From Eledone cirrhosa (taxonomy: Eukaryota), in NCBI GenBank assembly GCA_964016885.1, contig OZ024742.1, positions 157,728,001 to 157,792,000 of the forward strand: DNA of 64,000 nt, written 5' to 3'. Within the stretch, counting starts at the first letter, position 1; each line of letters opens with the position of its first letter. The notes beneath the pieces are model-generated. The model had not been told where the DNA came from, did no database searches, and saw only the letters and a list, made by a program, of their open reading frames with translations. The position numbers and the translations under genes were made by a program. This document shows, one piece after another, positions 22,545 through 62,664 of the stretch.

Positions 22545-24280
22545 AAGCAATTGTAGTAAGGAACCAAATAGACCATAACGCACCAGTGTACACAATACTT
22601 AGGGTAGTAGAGTGTGAAACAGTAAAAAGTATGACCCCGACAACAGAGCTCAAGCCGTTTCGACGAATATTTCTGTACTAAATTAAAATGTTTAGCCTGG
22701 TGAATAAATAGCCGAACTTTTCAAGGAGGTACTTCCTTATATGGGGAGATTGTAGTTGTCAAGACGATTGGTTGAAATTTGTTGTAAACATAAATAAGTA
22801 TATCATGGCATTTGGTGGGTGGTAGGGGTGGCTGAACTTGCGGAGCGGGCAAGCGTTGAAAGTGATATGTATACATCAGATTCTAAGGATAGTGTATGAA
22901 GTGGGAGAGGGAGGTTATAGAATAGGTAAATCGAAAGAGAGTAGGAGACAATAAAAGATACTAGAAAGAAATAAAAAAATAAAAAATATATAAAATTAGA
23001 TAGTGACAAATGAATAAAGAAATCGCAATACTATCTTACAATTACAGGTTAACAAGTTGAGAATAGAAAAACTTATAGATATTACAAAACTGATACAAAA
23101 TTAAAGGGGTTTTTAACATATCTGCTATAAGTAGTTAGCAAAACGTATTCGGCCATTTCTATCTCAAAATAACAGGGTGGTGGAACTGATGCTACAAGGC
23201 CCGATAGGCTGCATCGGGGTTGGCGAAATGGGAAAGCAGACGAGGAAGCAGACGAGGAAGAAAATAGGATGAGACAGGGGGAAGAAGGAGAGAAAGAGGA
23301 AAAGAAAAGTGATACATTTACCTATGTAAGCTGAGGGTTTCCACTAACTTATTCGACAAGTGTCTGTGTGTGTGTGTATGGGGGGGGGGGGTTATCAGCC
23401 CTTGTCTACCCACCCGGGTCGTTATAGAGTTTGAGCGCGAGGTAAGTCCTACGCAATCTTTGTTTGCATGTGGTTACCAGTTCATCTTTCTTGTTTAGGA
23501 GTTGGTCCTTCGAAAACAGCATTTGTAATGTTTCCTCCGAGCATAAGGTACACGGACGGTGTCCTCCCGTGTAAGAGTTAACTCTGGACAGTAAGCTCCA
23601 AGTGCGATTGTACGTTATATTGTTATCTTGGAGGTCCCAAATGTGGCCCGAATGTGTAGTGGCATGTCGCCGAAGCGGGTGTCGGAAAGTATGTCGGTGT
23701 TGGTAGAGCCGGGTCTTGAAGTCACACGCCGTTAATCCTATATTAGCTTTGTTGGAGGTGTCTGTCCTCACGTTGCACTGGTAGATCACGTTACGTTCTC
23801 GGCATTTGTTGTTGAGGGGGCATGTGGATCTATCAGGGCAGTTACACCTCTTGGTCAGCTCTCCACTGATATCTAGGTTATTTCTTCCATAGGGGTTGAG
23901 TTTTTTTGTTATTTGAAGAGACGATGTTTTGTGCGAAGTTAGGTGTGGTGTTGTACGTGAGTTTGATGGTGTTTTTGTTCATACACTATCCTTAGAATCC
24001 GATGTATACATATCACTTACAACGTTTGTCTGCTCCACTCACTTCCCTATCGTTCTACAGCCAAGTTCAGTCACCCCTACCTCCCACCAAATACCATGAT
24101 AGGCTTATTTGTGTTTACCACAAATGTTAACCAATCTTCTTGACAACTACAATCTTCCCATATAAGGAAGTACCCCCTTGAAAAATTCGGCTATTTATTC
24201 ACCAGGCTAAAAATTATAATTTAGTCCAGAAATAGCCGTCGAAACGGCTTGAGCTCTGCCGTTGGAGACATACTTGTTCC
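22545..24280 (-). mobile_element. 5'-truncated Naiad-type PLE (GIY-YIG end + pLTR) with inverted 5' pLTR fragment, in (TA)n
   Basis: Minus-strand NKNTIKLTYNTTPN, RCNCPDRSTCPLNNKC, VIYQC...IGLTACDFKTRLYQH...HIW...CTLC...LLNKKDELVTTC (23406-23985). ~24085-24263 is an inverted copy of ~22634-22825. Same family as 62830-64000. Confidence 0.92.
24172..24267 (+). ncRNA. Hammerhead, U3-A8 variant with extended stem II (mirror 22634-22730 on minus)
   Basis: ccccc-TTGAAAA-att-cggctattt...aaatagccg-tc-GAAA-cggc-ttgagctct-gccg-TT-ggag. The other copies supply the G10.1-C11.1 closing pair, a GUC triplet and the gggg stem I strand. Confidence 0.7.
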
Positions 24281-24387
24281 TATATATATATATATATATA
24301 TATATATATATATATATATATATATATATATATATATATATATATATATATATACATAACATATGTATATATATATATATGTATATA

Positions 24388-25342
24388 TATACTATAAATG
24401 ATGTACATAGAATCATTTGACTAGATATATACTCCATTTCCTCTCCCAATTAGCATAATGAACCACAGAAAAATAACAAATAAACCAGGCTATAAGTTTA
24501 AAAGGCACCTATGAAGAAATAATATATAAATAAACGATAGCCATTTATTTGCGATCAACAGCTATAGAATATTTACCCACCATTTCAATAGCACGTGGAA
24601 ATCGATTAATTATATCTTCAACCATACACAATTAGGTATAAAATTAAAATTAGAAGAAAAAATGCATATACACAAACAAGGATTACGTTTCTACCGTATA
24701 GGCTTTCGTTCGCTTTCGGAAATATCCTATCAAGGATAAATTCCCGAGCTTCGAACTCATCAGGAAACAAACTCACTTGGGCAAAGATTTTTTTTAAATG
24801 ATGCCCGCCAGAAACGAATTCAAAATGGCTAAGAATTGTGACGTGGCAGTGGTCAAGTCAGAAAGAATGTGATTGGTGCCTTACGGCTAGTGAGCTGATT
24901 GCTAGAAAGCGCAGCCTAATATTGCCTAAATTGCATCTCAACCTTATGGGAGATTATCAAATATAAAGATTTACATATGCACAAACTAAATAAAGTCATA
25001 GATATGTTTTTGGCAACCATTCACGGTGTGGCTCAATGATCAATTAATAAATTAAATAATCAGAGCAATATACTATAAATTATGTCCATAGAATCATTTG
25101 ATAAGATTCCACTTCCTCTCCCAATTAGCATAATCAACCACACAAAAAAAATAAACCAGGCTATAAGATTAAAAGGCACCTATGAAGAAATAATAGATAA
25201 ATAAAAAACTGCCATTTATTCGCGATCAACACCTATAGAATGTTTACCCATCATTTCAATAGCACGTGGAAATCGATAAATATATCGTCAGCCATACACA
25301 ATTAGGTATAAAATTAAAGTTAGAAGAAAAAATACATATATG
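24388..25342 (-). repeat. Partial tandem non-coding element, ~681-bp period, with hammerhead motifs
   Basis: 24390-24670 is repeated at 25071-25340. Each repeat has a minus-strand relic core (CTGACGA at 25291-25285 ... GAAA at 25257-25254), and a second hammerhead lies at 24687-24768. Confidence 0.85.
24687..24768 (-). ncRNA. Type I hammerhead ribozyme, near intact, long stem II
   Basis: gtttc-CTGATGA-gttc[..tcgggaa..tatcct/aggata..tttccga..]gaac-GAAA-g-cc-tatac-gg-TA-gaaac. Perfect 5-bp stem I; one extra G at the base of stem III. Confidence 0.85.
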
Positions 25343-61732: not shown

Positions 61733-61769
61733 TTTTACCGGTTGCGCATTTCTAAATGCTTTTCAAAAA
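61733..61769 (-). ncRNA. Minimal hammerhead, U3-A8 variant, one lesion
   Basis: ttt-TTGAAAA-gcatt-taga-aatgc-GCAA-ccgg-TA-aaa; GAAA is mutated to GCAA. Confidence 0.65.
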
Positions 61770-62576
61770 TAATTTTGAGGTAGAGTGTCCGTGCTGTATG
61801 CTCTGATCAGAGCAAACAGCACGCAAATAGAACTCATAATATCCCTTTACCACAGCATTCTGCCCTTCGGCCAGCAAAATATCGGCTGCACTCGGGGTTG
61901 GCTGACTGCCACACTACTACAAAAGCGAGGGAGGGGGGGATCATCCTTAGTATAATTTACAATAGTAATCAGCTTTATATACCTTATTTTATGCATGCGC
62001 AGACCTGTTGGCATGAATTGAAGCTCACAGGGGAACGAACATCGCTGTTTCTCCGTTCCCTGTGTCACTTCGATTTTGGATAGCCTCCTTGATTGTAACT
62101 GTATTATGTAACACAGTGTCTGGAGAGAGCATGGCACTAGCTTCTACGCTATATTGCGTAATCAATTGTCGTCCACGAAATATGTATAACGGTCTTATCA
62201 ATAAAGTACTTATCATCTAAACTTTGTATTTCTTCTTCTATATATATATATATATACAATAATATATATATATATATATATATATATATATACAATAATA
62301 TATATATATATATATATATATATATATATATATACAATATATTTAGAAACACACAGATACATGCGGACACACACATATATACATGAATGCATCCGCACCC
62401 AACTGTGAGTTAAGGGTTCCAGCTTCACCGATGTTGCTCAATGAATGACCGGGGCAGACCAATTCAGTTGAACTAGACTGAACCAGTATCAGAGTTAAAA
62501 ATACATTATGAAGAGAGAAGAAACATTTAGATATAATTAGTAATAAAATGTATCATACCTAAACTGCTCCTAAATT

Positions 62577-62664
62577 CCTCGACTACGTAGTTTCGTGGCA
62601 TAAACAAAAACAATATATCATAAAGATATAGAGTCCCTGCGAGGTCTGCCGACTTATCAAGAGG
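62577..62664 (-). ncRNA. Type I hammerhead, U3-A8 variant, core otherwise intact
   Basis: cctc-TTGATAA-gt(c)ggca...tgccac-GAAA-ctacgtag-TC-gagg. 4-bp stem I, palindromic stem III ACTACGTAGT, GUC triplet. Confidence 0.8.

Follow-up and report, generated by a model that had tools for sequence, protein, structure and literature searches.

The stretch analysed here (the window) comprises 64,000 nucleotides of the Eledone cirrhosa genome, contig OZ024742.1, positions 157,728,001 to 157,792,000. It is AT- and microsatellite-rich DNA of animal type from a 3.0-Gb assembly, and it carries seven motifs with the layout of type I hammerhead ribozymes in which core positions 3 and 8 read U3-A8 instead of the tertiary pair C3-G8. 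We found that all motif families with placed carriers occupy the 3' ends of elements of the Penelope-like type (PLEs) that have inserted in (TA)n and that U3-A8 is fixed at family level in both Hydra-type and Neptune-type elements. We concluded that the motifs are a real, abundant, conserved, and already known core variant in new carriers.

A sequence-only reading of the window had placed the seven motifs at five sites, with cores reading TTGAAAA, TTGACAA or TTGATAA, and we confirmed each of them at its position (Table 1). In all seven, the core is followed by helix II, G(A/C)AA, helix III, and UH. We assigned the carriers to family A (62.6 kb), family B (22.6 and 24.2 kb), family C (59.9 kb), and family D (61.7 kb); the 45.07-kb motif had one weak relative only among the loci retrieved and no clear family. 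Inverted repeats bounded by (TA)n were abundant across the window when repeats were mapped by masked BLAST; plain repeat finding was swamped by microsatellites. An Rfam scan of the window gave no hammerhead among the 150 matches listed of 153 (E ≤ 10).

The cores at these sites had been taken as functional, but most of the cited copies are decayed, and the A13C change fixed in family D had gone unflagged. The 62.6-kb motif is the sole intact one among them; the others carry private defects. The 24.2-kb motif has a broken helix I besides G10.1>A, the 22.6-kb motif has mismatches in helices II and III, and of the 59.9-kb arms the left has A14>C and the right a broken helix II. The 61.7-kb motif reads GCAA, not GAAA. 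At 45.07 kb, helix I is weak and both ends of helix II are U (U.U at 10.1/11.1), as in many published Hydra-clade motifs (PMC8557442). Folded singly, the short motifs did no better than shuffles.

Table 1. Hammerhead motifs, their carriers, and comparators in the window
Feature	Position	Strand	N3/N8/G12	Remarks
Family B type I hammerhead, U3-A8, decayed, in 3' pseudo-long terminal repeat (pLTR)	22635..22728	-	22724/22719/22661	predicted cleavage after C17 at 22639
Family B PLE, end of open reading frame (ORF): linker (CxCx5C) and GIY-YIG-like endonuclease (EN)	23406..23978	-
Inverted 5'-truncated family B 3' end with second U3-A8 motif	23978..24281	+	24178/24183/24241	G10.1>A; ends in (TA)n
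Old U3-A8 minimal motif, family not established	45076..45114	+	45080/45085/45101	ACCGGU palindromic helix III
Family C: palindromic pair of truncated 3' ends in inverted orientation, both bearing a decayed minimal hammerhead with U3-A8	59793..60051	left arm -, right arm +	left 59886/59881/59866; right 59951/59956/59971
Inverted pair of canonical CUGACGA hammerheads, other PLE-like element	60193..60848			comparator
Canonical C3-G8 member of long-helix-II group	61318..61468	+		comparator, absent from the sequence-only reading; sister subfamily is U3-A8
Family D 3' end, Neptune-type PLE	61612..61811	-	61766/61761/61745	motif 61733-61769; U3-A8 and family-fixed C13 (GCAA)
5'-truncated family A copy	62345..62826	-	62660/62655/62594	intact U3-A8 motif 62576-62665; predicted cleavage after C17 at 62581
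Second family B copy, reverse transcriptase (RT)-linker-EN, broken	62830..64000	+		runs past the window to a core-deleted motif

At family level, A to D share N3-U4-G5-A6-N7-N8-A9 with a Watson-Crick 3-8 pair, which is U3-A8 in all four, and families A, B, and C continue with G12-A13-A14-A15.1 and U16.1-H17. Three helices surround the core, with helix I open, in the family B monomer; in families A and C helix III is palindromic and needs a dimer. Like PLE minimal hammerheads, the motifs sit in the pLTR or 3' end of PLEs, often as inverted pairs. The bulge that such hammerheads carry between A9 and G10.1 is absent from families A to D, in which G directly follows A9.

To count core states, we used pattern searches with reversed controls. 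The pattern TTGANAA-N8-25-CGAAACCGGTA had 15,854 matches in the genome and 2 in the reversed control. With the suffix CGAAACCGGTA (helix III) held fixed, the 15,854 U3-A8 matches stood against 97 C3-A8, 82 U3-G8, and 3 C3-G8 (controls, 0 to 3). A general short descriptor found 20,616 U3-A8 motifs (control, 339) and 9,769 C3-G8 motifs (control, 217); its four states together gave 30,829 (control, 675), which leaves about 444 single mismatches by subtraction. The long-helix-II pattern of families A and B matched 11,172 times (control, 12), and the 100 matches listed comprised 94 U3-A8, 4 C3-A8, 1 U3-G8, and 1 unrelated C3-G8. A pattern for family D matched 11,125 times (control, 0), and a fourth, long-helix group had 11,389 matches, about 7% of them U3-A8 as estimated from 100 listed. 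Over these four disjoint patterns, we count about 43,000 U3-A8 motifs, a lower bound. The motifs thus lie far above chance, and U3-A8 is enriched over the single mismatches. A search confined to CUGANGA would overlook tens of thousands of motifs, a loss that the sequence-only reading had expected.

Pattern totals overstate the U3-A8 share relative to structure-based sampling. In a structural scan of 800 kb, taken as 80 stretches of 10 kb at even spacing, we obtained 145 hits, against 21 in shuffled and 18 in reversed sequence: 74 were C3-U4-G8, 20 U3-U4-A8, 13 C3-A4-G8, and 6 C3-C4-G8. A stricter scan gave 33 C3-G8, 15 U3-A8, and 4 others. The first descriptor needed G10.1 and a short helix II, so that U.U and long-helix motifs were missed, and it was later relaxed; both descriptors demand GAAA and therefore miss family D. 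Since canonical cores lead in this unbiased 800-kb sample (74 vs 20), U3-A8 is a large minority.

We found that U3-A8 is inherited from master elements and is thus a family state, not decay; U3-A8 recurs in unrelated stems, as had been claimed. Clustering all loci retrieved gave 14 C3-G8 clusters, 7 U3-A8 clusters, a C3-A8 singleton, and 3 other singletons (Fisher P = 5e-5 on the C3-G8, U3-A8, and C3-A8 tally, whose clusters are not independent). An apparent U3-G8 family (L162 and L095) was rejected: its TTGATGA belongs to helix II in a motif with a canonical core.

Inferring selection from copy counts is not supported, because such counts are pseudo-replicated, so we turned to comparisons between subfamilies, which gave better evidence for selection. 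Part of it comes from the long-helix group. Its 100 listed matches were 93 C3-G8 and 7 U3-A8, with no single mismatch. U3-A8 occurs in 4 of 33 distinct copies, which form one branch with a bootstrap value of 100; among 13 chosen copies, pair 3-8 is CG in 9 and UA in 4. On the U3-A8 branch, helix I changed on both sides at two pairs (AU>GC and UA>CG), and 97.3% of the alignment cells are paired. We concluded that one subfamily of this homologous group went from C-G to U-A, with compensatory changes in helix I. No autonomous ORF turned up for this group in a search limited to one look.

Family B is an autonomous PLE with an RT carrying YRDD, a CxCx5C linker, a GIY-YIG-like domain lacking CCHH, and the hammerhead in its 3' end. 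The linker, the lack of CCHH, the CxxC and CxH at the C terminus, the (TA)n insertion, and the 3' hammerhead are those of Hydra-clade PLEs (Craig et al. 2021, PMC8557442), and its protein resembles published Hydra-clade proteins in a by-eye comparison. A Pfam search missed this protein and one other GIY-YIG. In contrast to family B and the L143/L159 family, which have UUGANAA, all Hydra-clade and Repbase rows in File S2 of PMC8557442 read ctgaNga. Across 37 copies of family B, the only split core site was the free position N7 (19 C, 14 A, 3 T). The 22.6-kb motif has a long helix II and a 5-bp helix III, and an intact family B copy folds as a monomer (helix I, p 0.91 to 0.99; helix III, p 0.76 to 0.92). 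A further family B 3' fragment, at 6245-6353(+), is cut inside helix II and lacks the U3-A8 half.

In an RT tree, the Hydra-type U3-A8 families B and L159 fell on opposite sides of a branch with 98% support, and family D belongs to another clade. It is therefore likely that the switch from C3-G8 to U3-A8 either had several origins or was passed from one element to another. The tree also placed a broken Hydra-type PLE of the window (526-2719, minus strand) as sister of the L159 family; no hammerhead was recognised in its 3' end.

Family D combines a canonical PLE RT with a CX2-5CxxC linker (here C-X4-C-xx-C) and a CCHH-type GIY-YIG, as do Neptune-clade PLEs; the clade was assigned by motifs only. 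Its core differs in having U3-A8 with C13. This C13, where type I hammerheads have A13, is found in 11,125 copies. In two public runs, A13 was absent at 1%, a single A13 copy having been seen elsewhere, and apart from a one-base indel in loop II the motif carried no further change at this level. Family C is homologous to family D (78% identity over 60 nt) and follows the truncation and inversion pattern of that sister family's type; we found no autonomous ORF among 30 loci of family C. Copies of C and D2, picked by a core-containing pattern, differed at 5 of 35 motif columns, compared with 23 of 41 and 60 of 88 flank columns. Because C and D are homologous and the 45.07-kb motif has a single weak relative, the five sites amount to about three independent lineages rather than five.

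The family A unit is 595 nt long, non-coding (longest Met-ORF, 48 aa), and 42% GC. It forms head-to-tail arrays and inverted truncated copies and was in tandem at 17 of 30 loci. All 40 full-length hits scored were identical over 161 nt, and family A is thus very young. Its helix III, a 10-nt palindrome, has a trans pairing energy of -12.9 kcal/mol, consistent with tandem dimers. In a divergent subfamily from public contigs, changes occurred only at L027 1563-1601, in distal helix II, where 6 of 8 paired-site entries stay paired; the post-hoc probability of this clustering is descriptive only. Public contigs also hold a head-to-tail junction, which is expected from genomic tandems and uninformative on circles. 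With a non-coding tandem unit, a type I hammerhead in each unit, and PLE-like insertion, family A resembles non-LTR retrozymes (PMC7229834; Li et al., bioRxiv 10.64898/2026.07.22.740005). It differs from them in its 595-nt length, non-canonical core, and long helix II. Two other retrozyme-like tandem families were seen, a 316-nt U3-A8 family (L096; G000:C1:6519946-6521556) and a canonical 466-nt family with about 30 units in one array (L098; G000:C1:5738326-5752444).

U3-A8 cores were known before; what is new is their carriers. The large uncounted population that the sequence-only reading envisaged is no novelty as a variant: Perreault et al. (2011, PMC3088659) described the same compensatory pair as a natural covariation, active in vitro, in rare examples, and Cervera and de la Pena (2014, PMC4209133) described about 1,300 U3-A8 PLE motifs in Schistosoma. 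The Cercyon PLEs of Schistosoma mansoni are similar in having type I hammerheads in pLTRs, U3-A8, and a palindromic helix III; there too, large numbers emerged only after a descriptor change, and opposite-strand pairs lie 100 to 700 bp apart (PMC4209133). They differ from what we found in that here about 43,000 copies fall into several families and two PLE clades, families A to D lack the bulged base after A9, the helix II extensions of A and B reach 50 to 60 nt, and helix III of B is stable. We found no literature record of U3-A8 in Hydra- or Neptune-type elements or of A13C, although figures and supplements of PMC4209133 and PMC3088659 may hold more, and nothing on these motifs in the host group.

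Other elements in the window and genome carry further hammerhead-like motifs. Canonical C3-G8 hammerheads occur in other tandem or inverted PLE-like elements (16151-16264, 50408-51552, 60125-60918, 61318-61468). A very abundant element with an A4 motif lies at 14415-14936/15338-15860 and 52151-52277 and in L145, where the motif is at the 3' end of a Hydra-type RT-EN element. Its core reads C-A-G-A-A-G-A in 25 of 28 readable hits, and the 28 BLAST hits spread over 21 of the 80 10-kb stretches. A C4-core family (CCGANGA) with well-formed helices has 8 loci, including 9404-9989/10115-10682, L011, L034, and L112. U4C is a known natural hammerhead variant (PMC3088659), named in the text of that paper's core-variation section, which does not name A13C or U4A. 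The window also contains an inverted-repeat PLE fragment (3393-5981) with a weak Pfam GIY-YIG match in an ORF at 4853-5350 and no recognised hammerhead, as well as non-LTR retrotransposon ORFs (endonuclease and RT, with an RVT_1 match at 55157) and transposon-like ORFs lacking a Pfam match (11245-13854, 54735-55792, 40143-40988, 34262-36147).

We propose, with a probability of about 0.78, that these are type I hammerheads in PLE 3' repeats and non-coding derivatives, that the masters are U3-A8, and that they self-cleave tandem transcripts, the genomic copies being mostly decayed. According to this model, read-through transcripts of tandem or partial-tandem copies would fold the hammerhead motif, in which U3-A8 would replace the C3-G8 tertiary pair with activity kept, and predicted cleavage after H17 would set unit-length RNA. 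Family B would cleave in cis as a monomer. Families A and C would cleave as dimers through their palindromic helix III, as in the dimer model for PLE minimal hammerheads (PMC4209133), and family A would yield unit-length, possibly circular RNA. A PLE protein may assist cleavage. The U3-A8 switch would have arisen several times, with purifying selection acting on the transposing RNA and inserted copies left to decay.

Several observations weigh against this model. In a Poseidon PLE, hammerhead mutants were without effect on insertion in vitro, no RNA ends were found at the cut site, and protein was needed for cleavage (PMC11167929); PLE minimal hammerheads cleave weakly (PMC4209133). The family A monomer folds without helix III (p 0.07 to 0.09). 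Family D reached its 11,125 copies while carrying A13C. Position 13 is regarded as invariant in hammerheads, A13 pairing with C17 (PMC7092961); a motif with a damaged-looking core can thus be amplified. Either the C13 core still works or the PLE spreads without cleavage. Single mismatches are non-negligible in the older family B (the 4 C3-A8 and 1 U3-G8 among 100 matches listed). The long-helix covariation is one event, and its shuffle control ignores relatedness. Finally, incomplete and broken fragments underlie the RT tree, and two copies, read manually, define the L159 motif.

The motifs might instead have a structural or protein-binding role in PLE RNA, such as binding the RT or defining the template, while cleaving little or not at all and keeping the 3-8 pair for folding. 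Such a role would suit a family D motif that is unchanged between subfamilies despite C13, the abundance of other families with A4 or C4 cores, and the dispensability of hammerhead cleavage for insertion in vitro by one PLE (PMC11167929). We nevertheless consider it unlikely: no U3-A8 family departs from G5, A6, G12, A14, A15.1, U16.1, or H17, and free variation is confined to N7, as catalysis predicts, and the family B monomer fold is stable. Far less probable, and largely refuted, is that U3-A8 is a neutral founder state in which a dead or mutated hammerhead hitch-hiked in a few successful masters. It is true that few families dominate the counts, that C and D are related, and that C>U and G>A are common AT-biased changes. 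However, U3 and A8 appear jointly in three or more lineages whose stems are unrelated, spanning two PLE clades, no single-mismatch family was found once the apparent U3-G8 family proved to be a misread canonical motif, and a comparison of C with D2 shows far stronger conservation in the motif than in the flanks. Chance matches in AT-rich DNA, or decayed CUGANGA copies, might have been suspected from the several degenerate window copies, which alone fold no better than shuffles, but the pattern counts refute this explanation, leaving it next to no probability: the genome counts far exceed the controls, and C3-G8 with the family C suffix has only 3 matches.

A bolder version of the self-cleavage model is that the U3/A8/C13 core and the C3-A4-G8 core are both active, probably protein-assisted ribozymes, alongside recurrent replacement of C3-G8 by U3-A8 in two clades; judged from sequence, we hold this only tentatively and think it rather improbable. 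Under this version, the PLEs here would explore a wider hammerhead core than thought, possibly with a C13.A17 contact in place of A13.C17, a suggestion that we likewise regard as doubtful. The C13 family and the A4 family are the most unusual remainder.

With CUGANGA fixed, ribozyme and retrozyme surveys miss roughly one-fifth to one-fourth of the motifs that look intact in this genome, and a very young tandem family is among those overlooked. The genome also offers natural matched pairs, namely, sister subfamilies with C3-G8 and U3-A8 and sister families with A13 and C13, and these bear on whether it is cleavage or structure that maintains hammerheads in PLEs.

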